Position numbers and translations under genes: made by a program
The notes under the pieces: generated by a model
What the model was told of the DNA's origin: nothing
Databases searched by the model: none
What the model saw: the letters and a program-made list of their open reading frames with translations, nothing else
Origin: an uncultured Candidatus Saccharibacteria bacterium
GTDB taxonomy: Bacteria > Patescibacteriota > Saccharimonadia > Saccharimonadales > Saccharimonadaceae
Length of the DNA stretch: 64,000 nt
Direction of reading: 5' to 3'
Assembly (NCBI GenBank): GCA_963551825.1
Contig: CAUVHJ010000001.1
Location: 25,833 to 89,832, forward strand
Shown: positions 30,587-53,413 of the stretch, piece by piece
Layout of the letters: each line of letters starts with the position of its first letter
Position numbering within the stretch: the first letter of the stretch is position 1

Positions 30587-33500
30587 ATGAGTCAGGGGGA
30601 AGTAAAGACGAAAAAGCAGGATGATCGGACTGATGTGCCGCCGATCTGTATTAGCCGTGAGGAAGCACGCAAGCACAAGTTTACCCCGAGTGACTTCGTC
30701 CATTTGCACAACCATACCACTTACAGTGTACTGGACGGACTGACCAAGGTAGATGACCTCATCGGTAAAGTCAAAGAGTTTGGTATGGAGGCTGTGGCGG
30801 TGACCGACCACGGCACTATGGGCGGCGATCTAACTTTTTATAAAAAGGCGAAGGCGGCAGGTGTCAAGCCGGTTCTCGGCATCGAAGTGTATATGGCGAC
30901 CCGAGGGCGCAAAGATCGTGATCCGGCAAAGGACAAGCAGCGCTTCCACCTGACTATTCTGGCTATGAATAAGACCGGCTGGCACAATATGATGCGACTC
31001 TCCAGTCTGGCTAACCTGGAAGGAATGTACTACAAGCCACGGATTGACCACGAGATCTTGGAGAAATACAACGAAGGTCTAATCGTTCTATCGGGCTGTG
31101 CCAGTAGTGAGATTAGCTGCGCTCTAAAGACCGGTGATTATGACAGGGCGGTCGAGCTGGCGAAGTGGTATCGGGGGGTCTTTGGTGATCGCTTTTACTT
31201 AGAGATGCAGGATCACGGTCACCCGAAGAGCAATACTCACTGGGAAATTCAGAACCGGATTAACGAAGGGCTGAAGCGGATGAATCAGGAGCTGGGCATT
31301 CCTCTGGTAATTACCTGTGACGGACACTACCTGACCCACGATTGTCAGCAGGCACACGAGATCCTACTCTGTATTGGTACAGGTTCTTTCTTAAGCGACA
31401 AGAATCGCATGAGTCTGGCTGACTTCGAGCTGCATTTGACAGACCCGAGGGACATCATTGATCACTGGGGTGACGAATGTCCGGAGGCTATCCTTAATAC
31501 CAGGCTGGTTGCCGAGCGATGTAATGTCGATATCGAGCTGGGGCAAGTGCTGATCCCGAAGTATCCCTCCCTCCCGAAAGGTGATAGTGAGCACTCGTTC
31601 TTTCATAAGTTGGTTTATCAGGGCCTGCTGGTGCGTTATAACGGCGTGCCGCAGGCGGAAGCGGAGCAGCTGTCGGTTGAGCAGATTAAGCCGATGCTGT
31701 CAGACGAAGTGCGTCAGCGAGCCGAGCTGGAGTTAAGCGTGATCGGTTCGATGGGTTATGAGGGCTATTTCTTGATCGTTCAGGACTTCATTAACTGGGG
31801 TAAGTCGCAAGGCTATGTCTTTGGCCCGGGGCGGGGGTCGGCGGCGGGGTCAATCGTCTCGTACGCCGTCCGGATCACTGACCTCGACCCGCTGAAGTAC
31901 AGTCTACTGTTTGAGCGCTTCCTTAATCCTGACCGCATTTCGATGCCGGATATCGATGTTGATATGCAGGATACTTGTCGGGACGATGTGATCGACTACT
32001 GTGCTGATAAATACGGGCGAGATCATGTCTGCAATATCGTCACCTTCGGCACGATGGCCAGCCGCTCGGCGGTGCGTGATGTGGCTCGGGTGCTGGAAGT
32101 ACCATATGCTGAGAGCGACCGCCTGTCAAAGCTGGTGCCGACCGGGCCACAGTCAGCTCATATCGGTACCTTGCGAGAGATCTTACAGACCGACCCGGAT
32201 ATCAAGCACGAGTATGAGACTAATCCTACGGCTAAGCGGGTTTATGACTTCGCCGCTCAGCTGGAAGGTACGATCAGAAGTCATGGCGTTCATGCTTGCG
32301 GTACTGTGATTGCCCCGGAGCCGCTGATTGATATTATTCCACTGGAGATGGCGCAGAAGGGTGTGATCACTACTCAGTTCTCTGCGCCTGAGGTTGAGGA
32401 TATGGGGCTGCTGAAGATGGACTTTTTGGGACTGTCCAACCTGACTATCATTGATAACTGTCTGCGGATTGTTCGCAAGGTCTATGGTGACAAGATTGAC
32501 CTCGATAACCTCCAGCTGGATGACGAGGAAGCCTACAAGCTTTTGCAACGAGGCGAAACGACCGGGGTCTTCCAGCTGGAGTCTGCCGGCATGAAGCGCT
32601 ACCTTAAGGAGCTGAAGCCGACCTGTTTTGACGATATTATTGCTATGGTGGCGCTATATCGTCCCGGTCCGATGCAGTTCATCGACTCGTTCATCGCTCG
32701 CAAGAACGGTAGAGAGCCGATTACCTATCCACACCCAACCATGGAGGATCAGCTGAAAGAGACCTATGGTGTATTGGTCTATCAGGAGCAGTTCATGAAT
32801 ATCTCTAAGGCAGTCTGTGGCTTTACCGGCGGTGAGGCGGATACTCTGCGTAAGGCTGTGGCGAAGAAGAAAGCCGACTTGATGGCGAAGATCAAGCCTA
32901 AGTTTATCGATGGGGCGGTCAAGACTGTCGGTGTGGAACGAGAGCTGATGGAGAAGTTTTGGTCACAGCTGGAAGACTTCGCTAACTACTGCTTTAATAA
33001 GAGTCATGCTGCCTGTTATGCCCTGATTGCCTACTGGACAGCTTATCTCAAGTCACATTATCAGGACGCCTTTATGGCGGCCCTGATGACCTCCGATTCG
33101 GGTGATACTGAGCGGCTAACCATTGAGATCTCCGAGTGTAATCGGATGGGGATAGACGTATTAAGGCCTGATATTAATGAGTCGTTTCAGGAGTTTGCTG
33201 TCGTTAAGGGGACGAGGAATATTCGCTTCGGTCTGGCCGGAATCAAGAGCGTCGGCTCGACGGCGATCGATGACATTATCAAGCAGCGTAAGAAAGATGG
33301 GCTATTCACCTCGGTGGAGGACTTTGCTCGGCGAGTCAATAGTCGGGTCTGCAATCGCAAGGTCTACGAGTCGCTGATCAAAGCAGGAGCTTTCGACTGT
33401 TTTATTGATAAGAGCGCTCCGGCCGGTACTTACTCCGGCTCACGAGCCGATCTACTCTTTAATCTAGATAGCATCATTGCTTTTGCTCAGAAGTCGCAGA

Positions 33501-34426
33501 AAGAAGCCGACTCAGGTCAGGGTAACCTGATCAGCATGCTGGAGGGTGATACTAAGGGTGTAGTATCCAGCTTGGAATTGAGCGCAGCACCCAAACAAAC
33601 TGACGCCAAGGAGCAGCTTAATTGGGAACGGGAGCTGCTTGGTCTGTACCTGTCGGCTCATCCGCTGGACGCCTACGATGACTTCCTGAACGAAAAGACG
33701 AATCCGACTAACTCGCTTAGCTCTGACCAAGATGGTAGCCTGGCGACGGTCGGTGGGCTGGTCAGTAAGAATCGGACTCTAGTGACCAAGGCTGGTTCGA
33801 AGATGGCATTTTTAACTATCGAGGATAAGTTTGGTGAGATAGAGGTGGTGGTCTTTCCTAAGACTTTTGAGGCTAATATGCCGGCGACGATCAACCCCAG
33901 CGATGTGGTCTTGATTAAAGGTCGGATCAGCGGTAAAGATAAAGAGGGTAATCGTCTGCCCGACCCATCCTTGGTAGCTGATTCGATTCAAGTTGTCACT
34001 GATGATGTGCTGAGTGCCTATCAGCCGACCGGCGTGCCGATGAGTGAAGTCAAGGCTGCTCCGGCTAGGTCAAGGCGTGGTGGTAGTCGCCAGTACCAGG
34101 CGAAGCAGGTAGCAGAGAGTGGACGAAAATATCATTCGGTAGCGACTAGAGCTAGCTCACCCACTACTGATATGTCGCTCTATGATATCGTTGAGGCAGA
34201 CAAGCCGAAAGTGATGTACATTCATATCAAAGATCCTACTGACGGTAAGAAACTGGTGGCGATGAGGGAAAAAGTTGATCAGTACCAAGGCGAAGATCAG
34301 GTTATCTTAGTGTTGGGTGAGTCTAAGAAGAGCGCCGTGCGCATGCCGGTGCGGACTTCGGCTTGTGCTGAGCTGGAATCAGCGGTCGGGTCGATTTTCG
34401 GCGCCGATTGTGTAGCTATTCGCTAG
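30587..34426 (+). CDS. dnaE: DNA polymerase III alpha subunit
   Basis: The product has the PHP domain FVHLHNHTTYSVLDG, the motifs GLLKMDFLGL and FNKSHAACYALIAYWTAYLK, and a C-terminal OB-fold region. It is 1279 aa long. Confidence 0.92.
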   Translation: MSQGEVKTKKQDDRTDVPPICISREEARKHKFTPSDFVHLHNHTTYSVLDGLTKVDDLIGKVKEFGMEAVAVTDHGTMGGDLTFYKKAKAAGVKPVLGIEVYMATRGRKDRDPAKDKQRFHLTILAMNKTGWHNMMRLSSLANLEGMYYKPRIDHEILEKYNEGLIVLSGCASSEISCALKTGDYDRAVELAKWYRGVFGDRFYLEMQDHGHPKSNTHWEIQNRINEGLKRMNQELGIPLVITCDGHYLTHDCQQAHEILLCIGTGSFLSDKNRMSLADFELHLTDPRDIIDHWGDECPEAILNTRLVAERCNVDIELGQVLIPKYPSLPKGDSEHSFFHKLVYQGLLVRYNGVPQAEAEQLSVEQIKPMLSDEVRQRAELELSVIGSMGYEGYFLIVQDFINWGKSQGYVFGPGRGSAAGSIVSYAVRITDLDPLKYSLLFERFLNPDRISMPDIDVDMQDTCRDDVIDYCADKYGRDHVCNIVTFGTMASRSAVRDVARVLEVPYAESDRLSKLVPTGPQSAHIGTLREILQTDPDIKHEYETNPTAKRVYDFAAQLEGTIRSHGVHACGTVIAPEPLIDIIPLEMAQKGVITTQFSAPEVEDMGLLKMDFLGLSNLTIIDNCLRIVRKVYGDKIDLDNLQLDDEEAYKLLQRGETTGVFQLESAGMKRYLKELKPTCFDDIIAMVALYRPGPMQFIDSFIARKNGREPITYPHPTMEDQLKETYGVLVYQEQFMNISKAVCGFTGGEADTLRKAVAKKKADLMAKIKPKFIDGAVKTVGVERELMEKFWSQLEDFANYCFNKSHAACYALIAYWTAYLKSHYQDAFMAALMTSDSGDTERLTIEISECNRMGIDVLRPDINESFQEFAVVKGTRNIRFGLAGIKSVGSTAIDDIIKQRKKDGLFTSVEDFARRVNSRVCNRKVYESLIKAGAFDCFIDKSAPAGTYSGSRADLLFNLDSIIAFAQKSQKEADSGQGNLISMLEGDTKGVVSSLELSAAPKQTDAKEQLNWERELLGLYLSAHPLDAYDDFLNEKTNPTNSLSSDQDGSLATVGGLVSKNRTLVTKAGSKMAFLTIEDKFGEIEVVVFPKTFEANMPATINPSDVVLIKGRISGKDKEGNRLPDPSLVADSIQVVTDDVLSAYQPTGVPMSEVKAAPARSRRGGSRQYQAKQVAESGRKYHSVATRASSPTTDMSLYDIVEADKPKVMYIHIKDPTDGKKLVAMREKVDQYQGEDQVILVLGESKKSAVRMPVRTSACAELESAVGSIFGADCVAIR

Positions 34427-34570: not shown

Positions 34571-35641
34571 TTGGTGGTCAAATCGCTTGATACCAGGGCA
34601 GAATTGACTGAGGCTGTCCAGTCGATCGTGTCATTTATAGAGCGGCCTCGAGAGGCGGATATTGTCATGCGGCGTTATGGGATCAAGGGTGAGCAAGAAA
34701 CGCTAGAGCAAGTCGGTGAGACGATGCATATCACCAGAGAGCGGGTGCGTCAGATCGAGAAGGCGACCATGATCCGGATCAAGCTGTGGCTGGAGAAAGG
34801 GTCCTGTCAGGCGTTTAATGTGGCGGAGATGGATATCGTCAAGTCGCTACACGAGATGGGGCGAGCCGCCAAGGTCGGTGACTTAGCTGAGGTGGTGATG
34901 GGCGACTCCGAGAGGCAAAGCCGAGCCTACGTCATGTTCCTAGCTGAGCTTAGCGGCAAGATGCTACCGACTACGGAGAATGATAAATACCACGCCGGGG
35001 TGGTATTGACAAGTGACAAGGATGATCGCAGCGTTAAGGCGAGGATTGATGAGATTATCAAAGTACTCAAGGATAAGAAAGAGCCGGCTACTCTGGACGA
35101 ACTATTTAAGTTAATTGGCAGTGGTTACGAGCATCCTAAGGAGATCGGAGCGATCGCTCGACTGAGTAAGCAGGTAGCTAATCTAGACGATAAATGGGGC
35201 TTAGCGAAATGGGCGTCGGTCAACCCGCGGACCATTAGAGATAAAGTTTATATTGTCCTTAAAGATAGTAAGAAGCCGATGCATTACAGTGAGATTGCCC
35301 AGCTGATCCGAGACCGAGGGCTTAATCGCAACAACTCCACCGACCCGGCAATTCATAACGAACTGATCAAGGACGATCGTTTCGTCCTAGTGGGGCGGGG
35401 TATTTACGCCCTGGCTGAGCATGGTTACAAGAAAGGTTCGATTACAGATGTGATCACCGAGGTTCTTCGTCAGCATGGCCCGATGTATCGAGACGATATC
35501 GTCCGGGAAGTACTCAAGGCTCGCCAAGTCCGAGAGACTACTATCTTGCTCAACCTGCAGAGTCGACCACAGTTTAAGCGAGTCGATAAGAATAAATATG
35601 CTCTAGCTGAAGAAGTGGAGACGAGTCCGGCTAAGTCCTAG
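34571..35641 (+). CDS. DNA-binding protein with a sigma-70 region-4-like HTH and a C-terminal HARE-HTH-like domain
   Basis: The start is TTG, preceded by AAAGGAGAG. Motifs are TLEQVGETMHITRERVRQIEKATMIRIK and MHYSEIAQLIRDRGL...FVLVGRGIYAL. Confidence 0.6.
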   Translation: MVVKSLDTRAELTEAVQSIVSFIERPREADIVMRRYGIKGEQETLEQVGETMHITRERVRQIEKATMIRIKLWLEKGSCQAFNVAEMDIVKSLHEMGRAAKVGDLAEVVMGDSERQSRAYVMFLAELSGKMLPTTENDKYHAGVVLTSDKDDRSVKARIDEIIKVLKDKKEPATLDELFKLIGSGYEHPKEIGAIARLSKQVANLDDKWGLAKWASVNPRTIRDKVYIVLKDSKKPMHYSEIAQLIRDRGLNRNNSTDPAIHNELIKDDRFVLVGRGIYALAEHGYKKGSITDVITEVLRQHGPMYRDDIVREVLKARQVRETTILLNLQSRPQFKRVDKNKYALAEEVETSPAKS

Positions 35642-35754
35642 GTCGGGTGATATCTGCCGGTAGTCGATTTTACCTGTGGGTATAATTAACTTGCCTTGAC
35701 GAATGAGCTAGCTTATTACGCTGTCAAGATTTGACATACACATCGCCCTTCCCC

Positions 35755-35788
35755 GCCCCTTGCTTCCGAGCAAGGGGCATTTTCTTTT
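35755..35788 (+). terminator. Rho-independent terminator (copy 1 of an identical 35-nt block)
   Basis: The stem gccccttgc/gcaaggggc closes the loop ttccga and is followed by attttctttt. The block is identical to 38019..38053. Confidence 0.65.
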
Positions 35789-35791
35789 AGG

Positions 35792-35829
35792 GTAACTCCG
35801 GATTTTTCCTGAGTTTGACTCCGTGTTTT
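35792..35829. repeat. 38-nt perfect direct repeat, copy 1 (gtaactccggatttttcctgagtttgactccgtgtttt)
   Basis: The sequence is identical to 37191..37228. The two copies bracket the ATPase gene. Confidence 0.9.
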
Positions 35830-35858
35830 ACCGAATACCAAGAATCTTGGACCACGAG

Positions 35859-37142
35859 CTAATTCTTCAAGCAGCCAATCGGGACGATGTAGATGCCGTC
35901 GGCTTGGCGGTAGGCGTAGTTGGTGGTGGCTGTCAGGATCATCGTAAATGATGGTCGGTGCATGACTTCAGTGTCAATATTGTCGATGAATCGCTGTAGC
36001 GACTTTGAACCCTCGTTGATCGAGACCTCGTCTGACCCAAGCTTGATTTCGACAGCTCCCCATTTACCATCAGGTAGGTGGATGATGGCGTCGCATTCTC
36101 GACCGGCTTTGTCTCGATAATAATACAGATGACCGTCTAAGTTCTCGGCGTAAATCTTCAAGTCACGTAGCGCCATAGATTCGAAGACCAGGCCAAACGT
36201 TCGGTAATCTAGTCGTAGGTCGTTCTCTGAAGCAAGCAGAGATGCTACTACCAGCGACGGATCGGTAAAGTTTCGCTTCCAGCCTGATCTGATAGCAGTC
36301 TTACTCCTTAACTGTGGTGACCAAGGTTCGATATCGTCCAAGATATGCAAGCGATTCAACGTCTCTAGATATGATGATAGTGTCTTGTCGCTGATCGTTT
36401 CGCCCGAACCGATAACGTCATTCATGATCGTCTGACCGGTCACCGGAGAGGCAATATGGCGAGCTAAGCTCCGGATGACGGCTCTCATCTTGGGAGTGGA
36501 GAAGGAGATGTCGTTGTCTAAGTCGGTCATCGATTCGTTAGTCAGGATGACCTCCAAGTAATCACGAGCTAACTTGCCGGTGTTGGTCGGATTACGCTTG
36601 ACGCTAGCCGGCCAGCCACCACGGGTGCAGAGCCGGGCGATATCCTCAGGTGTCAATCCGGCTTCTCCGGCGATATTTTCATTACCGTGAAAAAGGTTTT
36701 TTAGTGAGACAGCGCCATTAGACTCGCCGGATTCGTAGAGACTCATGGGGCGCATGATTAGTCGGACTATGCGCCCGGCGCCGGAGTGGGCGGGCTTGCT
36801 AACTTTAGGCGTGGATGAGCCGGTCAAGATATATTGTCCGGTCAGTCCGGTCTTGTCGACATCATAGCGAACGGCATCCCAGATAGTAGGCGTATCTTGC
36901 CACTCGTCAATCAGACGGGGCTTGTCGCCACTAAGTAGGATACCGGGGTCTGACTTGGCGATCGCCTTGTTGTTTTCAGCGGTAGTAGGGTTCTGCATCT
37001 CGATGAAACTACTAGCTACCTGGCGGGCTGTGGTTGACTTGCCACACCATTTACACCCCTCCAACGATACGGCGCCATAAAGCTCCAGGTTTTCCTTTAA
37101 TACGCTGTCCATTAGGCGGGGAATATAATCGCTATCTTTCAT
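35859..37142 (-). CDS. AAA-type ATPase of the orphan ATP-binding protein class (AAA plus DUF4143-like architecture by eye)
   Basis: Walker A is GCKWCGKST and Walker B is PRLIDEWQ. The ~427-aa length and N-terminus YIPRLMDSVLKENLELYGAV are typical of this family. The gene has its own TGaTACAAT -10 on the minus strand just upstream. Confidence 0.72.
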   Translation of the reverse strand: MKDSDYIPRLMDSVLKENLELYGAVSLEGCKWCGKSTTARQVASSFIEMQNPTTAENNKAIAKSDPGILLSGDKPRLIDEWQDTPTIWDAVRYDVDKTGLTGQYILTGSSTPKVSKPAHSGAGRIVRLIMRPMSLYESGESNGAVSLKNLFHGNENIAGEAGLTPEDIARLCTRGGWPASVKRNPTNTGKLARDYLEVILTNESMTDLDNDISFSTPKMRAVIRSLARHIASPVTGQTIMNDVIGSGETISDKTLSSYLETLNRLHILDDIEPWSPQLRSKTAIRSGWKRNFTDPSLVVASLLASENDLRLDYRTFGLVFESMALRDLKIYAENLDGHLYYYRDKAGRECDAIIHLPDGKWGAVEIKLGSDEVSINEGSKSLQRFIDNIDTEVMHRPSFTMILTATTNYAYRQADGIYIVPIGCLKN

Positions 37143-37190
37143 CTCTTCCTATCCTTATTGTATCACAGGTGGTGTTTCTGTATCACCCCT

Positions 37191-37228
37191 GTAACTCCGG
37201 ATTTTTCCTGAGTTTGACTCCGTGTTTT
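37191..37228. repeat. 38-nt perfect direct repeat, copy 2
   Basis: The sequence is identical to 35792..35829. Confidence 0.9.
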
Positions 37229-37352
37229 GCCTGATGTAGTGTAAAACGATTCGGGTTGATAAGGGTGGTAATCGCTATATATAGCTATATATTCATGACG
37301 GTATCTCCGACCGGCTTACCTTGACGAAATAAGATTTCAATCACGCTAACAC

Positions 37353-37381
37353 TTGACAAATGCGGGGGGGGGTGTTACAGT
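37353..37381 (+). promoter_or_regulatory. Candidate promoter TTGACA-N17-TACAGT with a G9 homopolymer inside the spacer
   Basis: TTGACA is at 37353..37358, the G-run at 37364..37372 (9 G) and TACAGT at 37376..37381. Downstream lie a 5' UTR hairpin (catgtgag/ctcacatg) and a strong SD. Confidence 0.45.
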
Positions 37382-37445
37382 GGACACCATCAGGTTGCAT
37401 GTGAGACCAGCTCACATGGCCTGCGATCCCTAAGGAGGGATGATC

Positions 37446-37994
37446 ATGAGTAAAATCATGACGACATCGCAAAGCATTATCCTCTCCGGTCGTTATGACC
37501 GGGAGGGATGCCGTACCCGGGTAGTGATACCCGGGTACAAGCTCGGTCAGTGCGTGAACATAACGCACTGGCGGGGCGGAGATAGGGAGTGCCTGGAGAA
37601 GGCTCTCCCTGGTCACCCCCATCTCGTCGACCTGGTCGACGGGATTGTCGGACAGCCTGGGCTGTCCGAAGGGGTTAAGGTTGGGAATACTCCCGACCTT
37701 AGGCCTGAACTGCGCCTGGCCGCATATGACCAGACGCAGTTCGTCGTAGAGATGAAGTACCTCATCTCTGCGATCTACGAGCATTCTCGCCATTTGGCGA
37801 GAATGCTTGATCGGTTTTACCCGTTATGGGTTAAACCAAGAGAGGAAGATGTTTCCACCGACCTGGCTACCATAATGGTGGCTGAGGTTGGGTGCAAGGG
37901 GGACCGCCCTATTTGGGTGACCATTCCTTGTAGTTGGGAGGATATGTCTCCCAACGGAAGAGGGCTGGTGACGCCTGCCGGCGTTGCTGGGTAA
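37446..37994 (+). CDS. Hypothetical protein, GC-rich orphan
   Basis: An SD (AAGGAGGG) lies 7 nt before ATG 37446 (ATG 37440 is in the same frame). The ORF is followed by the terminator at 38020. G+C is locally high: 40/60 at 37561..37620, against 30/60 at 17221..17280 in alaS. I recognised no family. Confidence 0.55.
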   Translation: MSKIMTTSQSIILSGRYDREGCRTRVVIPGYKLGQCVNITHWRGGDRECLEKALPGHPHLVDLVDGIVGQPGLSEGVKVGNTPDLRPELRLAAYDQTQFVVEMKYLISAIYEHSRHLARMLDRFYPLWVKPREEDVSTDLATIMVAEVGCKGDRPIWVTIPCSWEDMSPNGRGLVTPAGVAG

Positions 37995-38019
37995 TCCCTG
38001 CTCTACTCTTCCTCTCCTC

Positions 38020-38053
38020 GCCCCTTGCTTCCGAGCAAGGGGCATTTTCTTTT
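38020..38053 (+). terminator. Rho-independent terminator (copy 2 of the identical 35-nt block)
   Basis: It has the same hairpin and T-tract as 35755..35788. Confidence 0.65.
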
Positions 38054-38186
38054 TATCATGTTATCTTTACGTTAGAACTGCTAAAAGTAATATGTCAGGG
38101 TAGCTCGGCAGCCTTATTTATGAGCTAACAGTCACTAGGACTGACTAGTGACAAATCAGGTAAAATATGCTAGGATACCCGAGATA

Positions 38187-40997
38187 ATGACAGAGGTGAT
38201 ACGTATCCAGGGTGCTAGAGTCCACAACCTGAAGGACATCAGTGTGGATATTCCTCGTGATCGGCTAGTGGTGATCACCGGACTGTCGGGCTCGGGCAAG
38301 TCCTCGCTAGCCTTCGACACTCTCTACGCCGAGGGGCAGCGACGTTACGTCGAGTCGCTATCGTCTTATGCCCGGATGTTCCTGGGTCAGATGGAGAAGC
38401 CTGATGTGGATAAGATTGACGGGCTTAGTCCGGCGATCTCGATTGATCAGAAATCAACTAGCCGTAACCCTCGCTCGACGGTGGCAACCGTGACCGAGAT
38501 ATATGACTATCTGCGCTTGCTCTTTGCCCGACTGGGTACCCCGCATTGTCCGATCTGCGGCAAGGAGGTGCGCAAGCGGACTCCTCAAGCGATCATTAAC
38601 GAGATCATGCAGCTGAAGGATCGACGGGTCTACATCTGCGCACCGATCGCCAAGCAGAAGAAGGGTGAGTTTGCTCATGTGCCGGAGCAGTATATGGCCC
38701 GAGGCTATGCTCGGGCTCGAGTAGATGGTATCGTCTATGCTCTAGACGAGTGGCCGGATATCGACAAGAAGTTCAAGCACGATATTGAGCTGGTAGTTGA
38801 TCGTCTGGTCATCACCGAGCAAGATCTATCCAGGATATCTGGTAGTGTCGAGCAGGCCCTGACTATCGGTGGCGGAGTAGTCGAGGTGATTGATGCCGAT
38901 AGCAGCGAACTGATGACTTATTCAGAACGCTATGCCTGTCCTGATCACCCTGACGAGCCGATTCCCGAGCTGGAGCCGAGACTTTTCTCCTTTAACTCAC
39001 CCTTCGGGGCTTGCCCAACTTGCTCGGGACTGGGCAGTCGAATGGTGGTTGATCCGGAATTGGTGCTGAACGATCACCTGACTATCATGGAGGGCGCCAT
39101 CCGACCGTTCAACCGGATTAACGTCGAAGCCTGGTGGATGAAGAAGCTGGCTAGTGTGGCGAAGGTGCACGGCTTTGACCTGCGTACTCCGGTCGGTGAA
39201 CTGGATGTTCAGACTCGCCGACTTCTACTGTATGGCACAGGCGACCAAGTCTATCCAGTCAAACTAGGTAGACGGACGGTTCAGACGACTTATGAGGGAG
39301 TGATCCCTAATCTAGAACGCCGCTGGCGAGAGACTGATAGTGATTTCATGCGGCGGAATATCGAGCGATTTATGCGAGAGCGAGAGTGTATGGACTGCCA
39401 CGGTGCTCGGCTCAAGCCTGTAGTGCAGGCGATCACAGTACACGACCTATCAATCGTCGATATCTGTAACCTGTCGATTGACGACGCCCGTGATATCTTC
39501 AATAAGATTGACTGGACGGAGCGAGAGAAGCTGATCGGTAAGCAGATTTTTAAGGAGATCAACTCTCGTCTGGACTTCTTAAGAGATGTCGGACTGAATT
39601 ACCTGGAGCTAGGACGCTCGGCTAATACACTATCGGGTGGTGAAGCGCAGCGAATCCGCCTGGCAACGCAGATCGGCAGCGGACTGAGAGGCGTGCTCTA
39701 TGTCTTGGATGAGCCTAGTATTGGCTTGCACCAACGAGATAACGACCGATTGATTGCCACTCTAAAGCACCTACGTGACCTTGGCAATACGGTGGTGGTG
39801 GTGGAGCACGATGAGGATACGATTCGCTCAGCCGACTATCTGATAGATGTTGGACCGGGTGCCGGGGTACATGGTGGTGAGATTGTAGCGGCCGGCACAC
39901 CTGCTGAGGTGGCAGCTAGCCCCGATTCACTTACCGGTCGTTTTCTCTGTGGCGAGGAAAAGATTGCCGTGCCGGCTAAGCGTCGACCGGTTGACAAGAG
40001 CCGTCTGCTGACGGTAGTAGGGGCCAGAGAGCATAATCTAAAGAATATCGATGTGTCTTTTCCGCTGGGGCTTCTGACAGTAGTGTCAGGAGTGTCGGGC
40101 TCGGGTAAATCGACCCTGATTAACGATATCTTAGGCCAAGAACTGCTGGCTAGGCTAAACCGAGCTCAGGCAGTGTCAGGAGCGCACCAGCGAATTGATG
40201 GCATAGAACAGCTAGACAAGGTGATCGTGATCGACCAGAGTCCGATTGGTCGGACACCAAGGTCAAACGCCGCTACTTATACCGGTGTCTTCACTCATAT
40301 CCGAGACTTATTTGCGGCAACACCTGAGGCAAACGTCAGAGGCTACAAGGCAGGGCGGTTTAGCTTTAATGTTAAGGGTGGGCGCTGCGAGCACTGTCAG
40401 GGTGACGGTGTGATCAAGGTGGAGATGCATTTTCTACCCGATGTTTATGTTACCTGCGATGAATGCCACGGTGCTAGGTACAATCAGGAAGCGTTGGAGA
40501 TTAAATGGCATGACAAGAATATTAGCCAGGTACTCCAGATGACTGTCGATGAAGCGGTGCAATTCTTTGACTCTATTCCGAAGATAGCAAACAAGCTGAA
40601 GACATTGCAGGAGGTGGGATTAGGCTATATTAAGATTGGACAGCCTGCTACTACACTGTCAGGCGGTGAAGCGCAACGAGTCAAGCTGGCGACCGAGCTA
40701 AGTCGTCGTGCCACCGGTCGGACATTCTATATCTTAGATGAGCCGACTACCGGTCTACACTCGGCGGATGTGCGCTGCTTACTAGGGGTGATGCAACGGC
40801 TGGTTGATACCGGCAACACTATGGTGGTGATCGAGCACAACCTTGACGTGATCAAATCTGCCGATTACATCATCGATATGGGGCCAAATGGTGGCTTGGA
40901 CGGCGGTCGGGTAGTAGCCAGTGGTACGCCTGAAGAGGTGGCGAAGAACCAAGCCAGCTTCACCGGACAGTACCTGAAGAAGATGTTGGCTAAGTAG
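38187..40997 (+). CDS. uvrA: Excinuclease ABC subunit A
   Basis: The start is set at ATG 38187 ([17 protein letters not shown]). There are two ABC modules ([18 protein letters not shown]; two LSGGEAQR signatures) and zinc modules ([19 protein letters not shown]). Confidence 0.92.
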
Positions 40998-48230: not shown

Positions 48231-48355
48231 TCATTCTTCATCTGCATCATCATTTCCTTCAGACCCGCCCGGCTGCTCGTGTGCTGCTGAGCTTCAAGCG
48301 CACACAGTCTTCAGGAAATGACTAATAGAGTGAAGGACAACAGACACCCTTGGAT
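48231..48355. ncRNA. Long imperfect hairpin element, copy 1 (candidate small RNA or MITE/REP-like element)
   Basis: The arms are cttcatct...tcatttccttcagac and gtcttcaggaaatga...agagtgaag, with an inner stem gtgtgc/gcacac. It is paralogous to 48419..48545. Confidence 0.4.
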
Positions 48356-48418: not shown

Positions 48419-48545
48419 TCACTCTTCGTCTCGTCATCATTTCCTTCAGACCCGCCTGGCTGGCTCGTGTGCTGCTGTGCTACAAGCGCACACAGTCTTC
48501 AGGAAATGACTGACGCAGACGAAGGACGAAAGACACCCTTTGAGG
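48419..48545. ncRNA. Long imperfect hairpin element, copy 2
   Basis: The architecture matches copy 1, 188 nt downstream. The outer stem is cttcgtct/agacgaag plus cgtca/tgacg. Confidence 0.4.
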
Positions 48546-48879: not shown

Positions 48880-49524
48880 ATGAATAACATGAATCATCCC
48901 AGTCATGACTACCAGCTACCTAATGATAGCTTTCTCTATAATCTAGACGTCAATGACTGGTCGATGCTGGCGCATCCGGAAGAAACAGATCAGCCCAATG
49001 ACGACCGGACTGGTGACGACCGGGCTGATAAAGCAGATGATAGCTCTGACGGTAATCTAAGTGACGGTCATGGCTACTCTCTCGAGATTTCCGCTATAGA
49101 CCCGGAGCTTGAACAAATGATGCTGGAGATAGAATATGGGCGACGGAAACTGGAAGAGCTGGAACGGATGCTACCGGAGACAAGGTGGTTGCTACGAGAG
49201 TTTGAGGAGCGAACCTCATGTCAGACATTTCCACTAGATTTGGAGCTTGAACAAGCGACACTGGAGGCAGAACAAGTGCGACAGCAACTGGAAAAGTCAG
49301 AGCAGATGCTACAAGAGGCGAGGCAGTTAATACAAGGGCTTGAGGAATCAGAGGAACAAGGTCCACATCAGACACTTCAACCGGATGCTAAGCGAGAAAG
49401 CCCCAAGAGGACTACGTCCCTGACGTTAGATGATCCGGAAGAGTTAAGGAATCGACCTTACCATAGTCAATTCAAAGAGATGAATCAAGGCATCGACTGG
49501 GGCTACGGCATGGGTCGTCGCTAG
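48880..49524 (+). CDS. Acidic hypothetical protein with two ~46-aa coiled-coil repeats
   Basis: The repeats are DPELEQMMLEIEYGRRKLEELERMLPETRWLLREFEE and DLELEQATLEAEQVRQQLEKSEQMLQEARQLIQGLEE. The N-terminus is D-rich. Confidence 0.5.
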   Translation: MNNMNHPSHDYQLPNDSFLYNLDVNDWSMLAHPEETDQPNDDRTGDDRADKADDSSDGNLSDGHGYSLEISAIDPELEQMMLEIEYGRRKLEELERMLPETRWLLREFEERTSCQTFPLDLELEQATLEAEQVRQQLEKSEQMLQEARQLIQGLEESEEQGPHQTLQPDAKRESPKRTTSLTLDDPEELRNRPYHSQFKEMNQGIDWGYGMGRR

Positions 49525-53098: not shown

Positions 53099-53114
53099 AG
53101 CCCGCACTTATACT

Positions 53115-53176
53115 ACATGGGGCGTCTGACAGGATTCGAAGGCTTCTTTGCTGGCGCAAAGTCGCAGGTTCAGCCT
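53115..53176. repeat. 62-nt repeat, copy 1, beginning with a pseudo-copy of the tRNA-His 3' end
   Basis: Positions 53116..53140 equal 53334..53358, which cover the tRNA-His 3' 23 nt plus 2 flanking nt. The remaining 36 nt are unrelated to the tRNA and identical in copy 2. Confidence 0.85.
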
Positions 53177-53224
53177 TAGGCGTCAACAAGCCTTTTCTTA
53201 AAAATAATACCTATCGCATCAATC

Positions 53225-53286
53225 ACATGGGGCGTCTGACAGGATTCGAAGGCTTCTTTGCTGGCGCAAAGTCGCAGGTTCAGCCT
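53225..53286. repeat. 62-nt repeat, copy 2 (100 percent identical to copy 1)
   Basis: The sequence is identical to 53115..53176. The period is 110 nt, and the genuine tRNA end follows 108 nt later. Confidence 0.85.
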
Positions 53287-53335
53287 GGGGAGTTTATAAG
53301 ACCTTCGTCGTTCGGACGTAACTGTAATAATCGCA

Positions 53336-53413
53336 TGGGGCGTCTGACAGGATTCGAACCTGCGACCTCCGGAGCCACAATCCAGCGCTCTAACCAGCTG
53401 AGCTACAAACGCC
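53336..53413 (-). tRNA. tRNA-His (anticodon GUG) with encoded G-1 and CCA
   Basis: The reverse complement folds with G-1, acceptor GCGTTTG/CAGACGC, discriminator C, anticodon stem CTGGA/TCCGG with loop TTGTGGC, and T arm GCAGG TTCGAAT CCTGT. Confidence 0.9.

Follow-up and report, generated by a model that had tools for sequence, protein, structure and literature searches.

A likely modular accessory island with repeated control blocks between dnaE and uvrA in oral TM7-G5 Saccharibacteria

Genes and repeated blocks of the locus

The analysed DNA is a stretch of 64,000 nucleotides from an uncultured Candidatus Saccharibacteria bacterium (assembly GCA_963551825.1, contig CAUVHJ010000001.1, positions 25,833 to 89,832), hereinafter the window. 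The locus under study is located between dnaE and uvrA, where the open reading frames (ORFs) are arranged in the order dnaE (30587-34426), a gene of a sigma70-region-4/HARE-HTH (helix-turn-helix, HTH) protein (34571-35641), an ATPase gene, a 182-codon ORF (p182), and uvrA. The noncoding DNA of the locus contains repeated blocks: a leader with promoters (L), a hairpin followed by a T run (T), and a block named D, as well as a palindrome. A comparison with about 60 related genomes (Candidatus Saccharibacteria, TM7-G5, Ca. Nanoperiomorbus) indicates that, in an oral TM7-G5 lineage, the DNA separating the core genes dnaE/HTH from uvrA is likely an accessory island that is modular and variable among strains; this island is probably defence-related.

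The two copies of T match at 38 of 39 nt, and the match is exact at 35754-35788; the copies of D match at 40 of 41 nt, the first 38 nt being exact. Each block is present in exactly two copies in the window, with no matches in shuffled controls. An earlier note, made from the letters of the window, had described the identical T blocks, the identical 38-nt blocks that bracket the reverse-strand ATPase gene with its own promoter, the 16-bp palindrome, and the second leader followed by a G9 tract, a Shine-Dalgarno sequence, a GC-rich 182-codon ORF, and T. All of these features were found as described: the T hairpin has a 10-bp G+C-rich stem with seven G-C pairs, followed by ATTTTCTTTT, and the G+C content of the p182 ORF is 0.56-0.57 versus about 0.50. 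The features are listed in Table 1, together with the repeats found upstream of homologous ATPase genes; the sequences compared are designated by L numbers.

Table 1. Features of the locus in the window and upstream repeats of homologous ATPase genes.
Feature	Position	Strand	Basis or remark
L1 remnant, upstream portion of the promoter module (P1 -35 box TTGACG and spacer)	35694..35722	+	100% match to positions 1-29 of the L001 module
End of the deleted p88, last four codons (V K I stop)	35723..35734	+	Alignment with relatives
T1, predicted intrinsic terminator of slot 1 (hairpin 35755-35778 and T run)	35750..35788	+	Repeat match, terminator scan
D1, downstream iteron pair, beginning 26 nt past the ATPase stop codon	35792..35832	-	Core invariant in ~55 genomes
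ATPase, AAA_14 + DUF4143 (PD-(D/E)XK)	35859..37142	-	Pfam, PADLOC
Predicted ATPase promoter, GTGATA-18-TACAAT with TG	37157..37186	-	Consensus prediction
D2, two iterons with a 23-bp period (GGCAAAACACGGAGT / GGAAAAATCCGGAGT, minus strand)	37191..37231	-	Nucleotide diversity (pi) 0.000-0.013
Perfect 16-bp palindrome ATATATAGCTATATAT between D2 and L2	37277..37292		Nucleotide diversity (pi) 0.000-0.006
L2, predicted tandem promoters P1 and P2	37321..37381	+	Consensus prediction
5' untranslated region (5'UTR), two hairpins: the first of 13 bp, the second AUCCCU/AGGGAU	37382..37445	+	Folding
p182, 182-aa mosaic lineage-restricted protein	37446..37994	+	Homologue search
14-bp hairpin in the p182 coding sequence	37778..37809	+	Perfect, all allele classes
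T2, predicted intrinsic terminator of slot 3 (hairpin 38020-38043)	38015..38053	+	Repeat match, terminator scan
Predicted uvrA promoter block, GTGACA-17-TAGGAT, single copy in the window	38142..38178	+	Consensus prediction
Upstream repeats of L104/L105, AAAGTTAGCCAAAATACGGAGTG x3	L104 4862-4930		ATPase 76% identical to that of the window
Upstream repeats of L106/L109, five units built on GCCAAATTACCAAAT	L106 4809-4946		ATPase 59% identical
Upstream repeats of L110 (Clostridia genome), TGCCAAACTCGGAAG x3	2381-2449		ATPase 56% identical
Upstream repeats of L112 (Bacteroides ovatus plasmid), AAGCCAAACTGCCGA x3	~625-695		ATPase 46% identical
Upstream repeats of L113 (Collinsella plasmid), 3.5 units	~560-640		ATPase 38% identical

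Filled and empty slots in related genomes

The related genomes share a common layout: the HTH gene, L-p88-T (slot 1), D-ATPase-D (slot 2), palindrome-L-p182-T (slot 3), and uvrA. The contigs encoding p182 keep the synteny dnaE-HTH-(88-aa gene)-ATPase-p182-uvrA-ldh-comEC-murT. The order of cassette-like modules with filled or empty slots, first proposed for the window, is borne out across these genomes. The earlier note took the ATPase and p182 genes for two unrelated genes, possibly captured; in the relatives, slots 1-3 hold deeply diverged alleles of three constant gene families in a constant order. The p88 gene is intact in 33 genomes, carries the deletion found in the window in 20, and is otherwise altered in two. 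The ATPase is present between two D copies in 52 genomes, and three have a single D; such alleles, lacking 35830..37228, had been predicted. The p182 slot is filled in 40 genomes, while three are devoid of p182, the palindrome, and L2; the palindrome is missing only where p182 is deleted. The fourth slot, between T2 and uvrA, contains a two-gene module in four genomes and a scar of about 160 nt in ten, and it is empty in 30, as in the window.

The region can be considered a strain-variable hot spot, since a slot may be occupied in one strain and vacant in another, and insertions or scars of the two-gene module occur near uvrA. The idea of an insertion hot spot that captures foreign genes held in this respect only: no foreign cargo was found in the locus, and site-specific capture is unlikely. 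No recombinase was found among the window ORFs or the relatives' gene calls, in agreement with the earlier note.

Slot 1 of the window is empty because p88 has been deleted, as is evident from the alignment with relatives. In the L001 genome, this slot contains an 88-codon ORF (p88) with a promoter and a leader identical to those of p182, and with T downstream. Compared with L001 and L003, the window has a 355-bp gap; judging by L001, the deletion extends from just past ...TTATTACGC(T) to the last four p88 codons, with the junction at ~35721-35723. An identical junction is present in L007, while L006 carries a separate, independent deletion. The slot had initially been considered empty because the TTGACA of the first leader copy runs almost straight into T. 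The proposed leader pair (35690..35740 and 37315..37362) is homologous only over approximately the first 29 nt of L1 (35694-35722, CCTTGACGAA...ACGCT); the TTGACA motifs of the two copies are not equivalent, and that at 35732-35737 represents the final codons of the deleted ORF and not a -35 box.

The module of the fourth slot shows similarity to PADLOC PDC-M04A and PDC-M04B (E values 1e-64 and 3.5e-33), PDC-M04A being a DUF3800 protein. It lies on the minus strand, and the uvrA promoter block is found at both of its sides as a 37-nt direct repeat. It is carried by L023, L066, L073, and L077 (for example, at ~2560-3990 in L023). The uvrA promoter block is also duplicated on either side of the scar, which preserves the two ends of the module (L001, 7735-7890). 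In the window, an inverted repeat GTCACTAG-N6-CTAGTGAC (38131-38152) extends into the predicted -35 box of uvrA; the 37-nt block that the PDC-M04 insertion duplicates has its left edge in this repeat. This repeat could be an operator, perhaps similar to an SOS box. The mechanically defined uvrA ORF starts at the GTG codon at 38148 (949 aa); the relatives' gene calls give 936 aa, and both these calls and the location of the promoter favour the ATG at 38187 as the start.

Proteins encoded by the island

The ATPase contains both domains of the AAA_14 + DUF4143 family, with scores above the Pfam cut-offs: PF13173 (48.5 bits, cut-off 27) and PF13635 (94.1 bits, cut-off 28.1), with E values of 1e-26 and 1e-12. 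Its residues 5-425 match the PADLOC hidden Markov model (HMM) PDLC04790 (PDC-S01) over the full length (E value 2.1e-57). DUF4143 is a PD-(D/E)XK domain (PMC3424549). PDC-S01 is common and, like PDC-M04, is a defence candidate (PMC12988326; bioRxiv 10.1101/2024.01.29.577857). Exact-sequence look-ups of the window ATPase and the 184-aa ORF revealed no match.

Neither p88 nor p182 could be assigned to a family of Pfam, NCBIfam, or PADLOC, and sequence searches of PDB gave no match with an E value below 0.4. Among 5.8 billion clusters, 20 clusters of p88 homologues and 58 of p182 homologues were detected, all confined to the TM7-G5 lineage and this locus. The 58 p182 homologues have 40-96% identity and originate from human oral samples; none contains a Pfam domain. 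The predicted fold of p182 is confident (predicted local distance difference test score, pLDDT, 87.5; predicted template modelling score, pTM, 0.82). A Foldseek comparison of this model with PDB and BFVD gave no match below E 0.1, with template modelling scores (TM-scores) < 0.3. The p88 model is too poor for use (pLDDT 48.6). The possibility that p88 and p182 are distant paralogues was rejected (hhalign probability 0.1%).

The hairpin within the p182 coding sequence is conserved in pairing: 93.8% of cells are paired versus about 40% in slid controls, and three pairs are changed on both sides in the most divergent alleles (40% identity). It is probably not a terminator, because its T-rich tail is not conserved. 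An Rfam search at a permissive threshold yielded just two chance-level matches, both inside p182. The palindrome upstream of L2 is a probable site for a dimeric protein.

Promoter module, G tract, and terminator

L2 contains two predicted promoters: P1 is formed by TTGACG (37321-37326) and GCTAAC (37345-37350) separated by 18 nt, and P2 by TTGACA (37353-37358) and TACAGT (37376-37381), which are 17 nt apart, the -10 box being of the extended type. The P2 spacer has the structure TTGACA-aatgc-Gn-tgt-TACAGT, where the window has G9 (37364-37372). The length of this G tract varies among genomes. In slot 1, G6, G7, G8, and G9 occur in 9, 15, 11, and 4 copies, respectively, and in slot 3, in 9, 17, 16, and 9 copies. 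Outside the tract, the promoter positions are invariant across 90 copies. When pairs of otherwise near-identical copies were compared (0-3 mismatches over 450-740 nt of sequence that is otherwise highly polymorphic), the G-tract length differed in 16 of 27 pairs for slot 1 and in 20 of 38 for slot 3, that is, in 36/65 overall, some of the same-length pairs being duplicate records of one assembly. The tract mutates much faster than its flanks, and this comparison of assembled sequences shows it to be hypermutable.

Contingency loci with a homopolymer or repeat in the promoter spacer include Neisseria porA and opc, which have poly-G/C tracts, and Haemophilus hif, which has TA repeats. The G tract described here is likewise situated between the -35 and -10 boxes of a predicted promoter, varies from G6 to G9 between identical flanks, and precedes genes that are hypervariable and non-essential. 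It is a candidate phase-variable switch by analogy: P2 spacers of 14-17 nt may switch or tune expression, given the established behaviour of sigma-70 promoters and of the Neisseria and Haemophilus loci. The differences are that the host is a candidate phyla radiation (CPR/Patescibacteria) episymbiont with a tiny genome, and that two copies of the candidate switch precede two unrelated orphan, cytoplasmic-looking proteins flanking a candidate defence gene.

The second hairpin of the 5'UTR pairs part of the Shine-Dalgarno sequence, and the minimum free energy (MFE) of the 5'UTR is -28.3 kcal/mol (z -2.8); no Rfam family match was found for it. From its sequence, L appears to be a promoter plus structured 5'UTR serving as a shared expression signal of p88 and p182. 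T is located after the p88 stop codon in relatives and after the p182 stop codon. Its G+C-rich stem is invariant across genomes and its T run is variable, which agrees with a predicted intrinsic (Rho-independent) terminator. On the minus strand, T1 has no T run.

The perfect identity of T and D next to a diverged leader had been interpreted as a sign of recent recombination or site-specific insertion. A related explanation is that the blocks arose by recent duplication or gene conversion in the strain, or are generic terminator or repetitive extragenic palindromic (REP) repeats. The identity of T1 and T2 in the window could suggest this, as could the extra A found in both promoter copies of L062. 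However, T1 equals T2 in just 7/43 genomes, and the leader copies show 1.50 differences per 90 nt both within and between genomes (permutation p 0.64), so the population test for gene conversion between leader copies was negative. Moreover, the blocks are near-identical in all related genomes despite a backbone synonymous divergence (dS) of 0.16-0.22, and no further copies were found in the window, in the loci of the ~60 genomes, or in the metagenome and viral scans. Two copies of D per genome, always at this locus, differ from the many dispersed copies of REP elements or miniature inverted-repeat transposable elements (MITEs). We consider recent duplication and generic repeats very improbable. 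The L062 promoters (at 3052 and 5016), with AATGCA+G6 in place of AATGC+Gn, represent a possible single case of conversion between promoter copies.

D blocks and the iterons of the ATPase family

The minus-strand sequence of D comprises two units, CAGGCAAAACACGGAGT... and CAGGAAAAATCCGGAGTTAC, which resemble the L104 units; D2 ends 5 nt upstream of the ATPase -35 box. Arrays of 3-5 units of 23 nt were found directly upstream of the promoter in 5/5 lineages of ATPase homologues examined (Table 1), distributed among Saccharibacteria, Clostridia, Bacteroides, and Collinsella, i.e., four phyla. A second D copy behind the ATPase gene is seen only in the TM7-G5 lineage. Tandem units that recur roughly every two helical turns, placed beside a promoter and present again in homologous loci, are typical of iteron operators, and on sequence grounds D2 is a probable native upstream operator of the ATPase module. 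The block is presumably bound by the ATPase or its partner, because the repeat sequence changes with the adjacent gene across lineages. Compared with the iterons of plasmid Rep proteins and autoregulators (~22-bp repeats), D is similar in its 23-bp period, its location upstream of the promoter, and the covariation of repeats and gene. It differs in the lack of a plasmid origin and in having only two units with a second pair downstream. D as a structured RNA was rejected (folding z -1.1 and -1.5 versus shuffled sequences).

Scanning species-representative genomes with a 29-nt D core revealed 76 genome stretches, all from Candidatus Saccharibacteria or Ca. Nanoperiomorbus (TM7-G5), with almost always two D copies, ~1399 nt apart. 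Eighteen metagenome stretches had an unchanged layout and no new junction type, and in none of these 76 and 18 stretches was D found at another site or around another gene. Scans of viral contigs for D, the leader, and T gave no match, nor did a phage BLAST search. Thus D is peculiar to this locus rather than a dispersed repeat. The allele classes on the flanks of D are discrete and all converge at the same nucleotide, where variable sequence gives way abruptly to invariant sequence.

In the single-D alleles (L009, L013, and L024), T1, D, and the palindrome are joined, and the ATPase is gone. Since D belongs to the ATPase module, these genomes can be regarded as deletion scars and are best read as the result of recombination between the two D copies that removed the ATPase. 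Alternatively, D and the 37-nt uvrA block could be attachment (att) sites, and a circular module consisting of the ATPase and one D would enter a chromosomal D and leave it again with the help of a recombinase encoded outside the locus, such as the host Xer, or of the ATPase-nuclease itself. This explanation accounts for the 41-nt direct repeats bracketing the ATPase and its promoter, with the sharp transition at the same nucleotides, and for the inverted motif ACTCCGG-N6-CCTGAGT read in the D sequence. It is also consistent with the single-D alleles, which homologous recombination between D copies explains equally well, with the direct repeats around PDC-M04, and with the 222-nt direct repeats around the L106 ATPase homologue. 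A circular junction might be represented by L038 (CALKRD010000056.1, 1419 nt), a circular permutation of the ATPase and one D with a 20-nt end overlap. However, the Logan contig L103 ends inside D at both ends, as would be expected where the length of a repeat does not allow assembly through it, and this shows that assemblies break there; L038 may be a low-k assembly loop, and its status as an excised circle was downgraded. Furthermore, no recombinase gene was found at the locus or close to it, the iterons homologous to D are located upstream of their ATPase genes with no copy downstream, and the slot always holds one gene family, D never being found elsewhere. Site-specific mobility of this kind seems to us quite unlikely, and an operator origin of D is preferred.

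Some observations concern the surroundings of the homologous genes. In L106, which represents another Saccharibacteria lineage, the 222-nt repeats are located at 4066-4287 and 6283-6504 (78% identity), the right copy starting 8 nt past the stop codon; 39-nt copies are present at 4070, 4313, and 6287, with an inverted copy near 4770. In L105 (1-75) and L104 (~4780-4860), a tRNA gene is followed at its 3' end immediately by the iterons and the ATPase gene; such sites are typical places for mobile DNA to insert.

Diversity, recombination, and selection

The backbone of the strains is 93-99% identical, whereas the three island genes have 66-90% identity and consist of mosaic blocks. According to the Nei-Gojobori method, dS of the HTH gene, dnaE, and uvrA is 0.16-0.22, with a ratio of nonsynonymous to synonymous divergence (dN/dS) of 0.02-0.03. 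The corresponding values are 0.51 and 0.06 for the ATPase, 0.49 and 0.19 for p88, and 0.89 and 0.34 for p182 (dN 0.30). The synonymous divergence of the three island genes thus amounts to 2.5–5x that of the backbone. The noncoding blocks are almost free of variation: pi is 0-0.025 in the P2 promoter and 5'UTR, and D and the palindrome are still less variable (Table 1). In p182, pi reaches 0.2-0.56 after codon 6, against a neutral proportion of synonymous differences (pS) of about 0.15-0.19. The stretch containing the ATPase promoter is hypervariable, with three allele classes and a pi of 0.19-0.40.

Protein alignments show that the alleles are put together from a few alternative segments. Recombination is evidently frequent, because pairwise distances of adjacent modules are uncorrelated (Mantel r -0.07 to 0.13, and ~0 for p182 and the ATPase half located 250 nt away). 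We conclude that the repeated blocks are old and constrained, and that diversity has long been maintained in the genes that they separate.

A conflict-related role of p182 and p88 is suggested by their elevated dN, their mosaic structure, and the candidate defence genes nearby. It could further be supposed that the ATPase works in one defence-like system of three components, with p88 and p182 as its phase-variable partners that provide specificity or regulation. The three genes lie side by side and keep their order in nearly all ~60 genomes, all have raised divergence, the regulation of p88 and p182 is shared through L and T, and both families are restricted to the lineage and locus. However, each gene is lost alone in some genomes, p88 being missing in ~40%, including the window, and the alleles are unlinked, as the Mantel test indicates. 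In addition, PDC-S01 is listed as a single-gene candidate, and its homologues elsewhere have no p88/p182-like neighbours. A single three-component system is unlikely in our estimation, and the modular island of independently variable genes is the preferred interpretation.

Other repeats in the window

Several repeats were found outside the locus. Near the tRNA-His gene (53336-53412, minus strand), three tandem units of ~110 nt (53111-53358) each contain ACATGGGGCGTCTGACAGGATTCGAA, and the last unit overlaps tRNA-His; these units may be partial tRNA ends left by integrative elements. Direct repeats at 48247-48323 and 48434-48511 are 96-97% identical (spacing 187 nt), and those at 49097-49208 and 49235-49346 are 72% identical (spacing 138 nt). 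About 490 nt of positions 1-500 recur 2.2 kb downstream (2245-2750) with 71-76% identity, and this pair probably represents paralogous genes.

Discussion

The data can be combined in a probable model. L, with its tandem promoters and two-hairpin 5'UTR partly pairing the ribosome binding site, would drive the expression of p88 and p182, and T would end it. The G tract of P2 changes its length far faster than the DNA around it and would in this way switch or tune expression, as in phase variation. Slot 1 of the window is a 355-bp p88 deletion allele. D would act as an iteron operator to which the ATPase or a partner binds, and recombination between D copies would remove the ATPase, leaving a single D. 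High recombination together with balancing or diversifying selection would keep the old mosaic alleles, while purifying selection would freeze the control blocks.

Several points weigh against this model. The p88 and p182 proteins are without assignable function, and every module is lost independently in some genomes. The G-tract lengths were read from consensus assemblies made from different samples and not from one strain, and most copies are G7-G8, corresponding to 15-16-nt spacers, which makes the ON/OFF assignment uncertain. Promoters and the terminator are consensus predictions, and copies of L and T were searched for in the window and in the loci compared. The defence role of PDC-S01 and PDC-M04 is that of candidates. 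Finally, the equal conservation of D2 and of D1, which lies behind the gene, is not accounted for by the model. Possible roles of D1 include looping, recombination, or a roadblock to antisense read-through into p88, the last being considered because T1 is devoid of a T run on the minus strand.

The locus resembles several known systems. Variable islets that lie between core genes and are exchanged through homologous recombination are known as the minimal mobile elements of Neisseria and as defence-island hot spots; like them, the locus has conserved core flanks, alternating content, high recombination, no dedicated recombinase, and candidate defence genes (PDC-S01 and PDC-M04). In contrast to such islets, slots 1-3 hold fixed families, the noncoding blocks are ultra-conserved, and one module is bracketed by a duplicated operator. 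With integron cassettes, it shares gene-sized units between repeated sites and empty or filled slots; however, both an IntI integrase and an attC-like palindromic structure are lacking, every gene is preceded by a promoter of its own, the orientations are opposite, and each slot has a fixed family. The ATPase agrees with PDC-S01 in the full-length HMM match and identical Pfam architecture, and differs in that its gene is bracketed by two iteron-operator copies and is polymorphic for presence.

All element types of the locus (contingency promoter, intrinsic terminator, iteron operator, and variable island) are of known kinds. The occurrence of all these elements together in a CPR bacterium appears to be undescribed in the searched literature, as do the twin G-tract promoters, the duplicated PDC-S01 operator, and the 23-bp iterons across the family; in this literature, we found nothing on the TM7-G5 locus, phase variation within Saccharibacteria, or iterons at DUF4143 genes. 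The twin G-tract promoters might be the first contingency switch described in CPR/Patescibacteria, controlling two orphan, mosaic proteins (one with a new fold) that work with the PDC-S01 ATPase-nuclease, and the 23-bp iterons might be the family's own recognition site, which would open a first way to the mechanism of one of the commonest defence candidates and could explain the movement of the gene as a unit with its iterons. These two proposals, taken jointly, are speculative and rather doubtful.

The genomes of Saccharibacteria are very small, their life is spent in attachment to other bacteria, and little is known about the variability of their expression and about their defence. The locus points to stochastic switching by a hypermutable promoter tract, long-maintained allelic diversity, and gene-by-gene presence or absence within 2.5 kb. 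It also calls for caution, as perfect repeats beside diverged DNA may be old, constrained elements and not traces of recent mobility. If the iteron operator proves to be general in the common AAA_14/DUF4143 (PDC-S01) genes, it would offer a defined DNA site for work on the function of this family.

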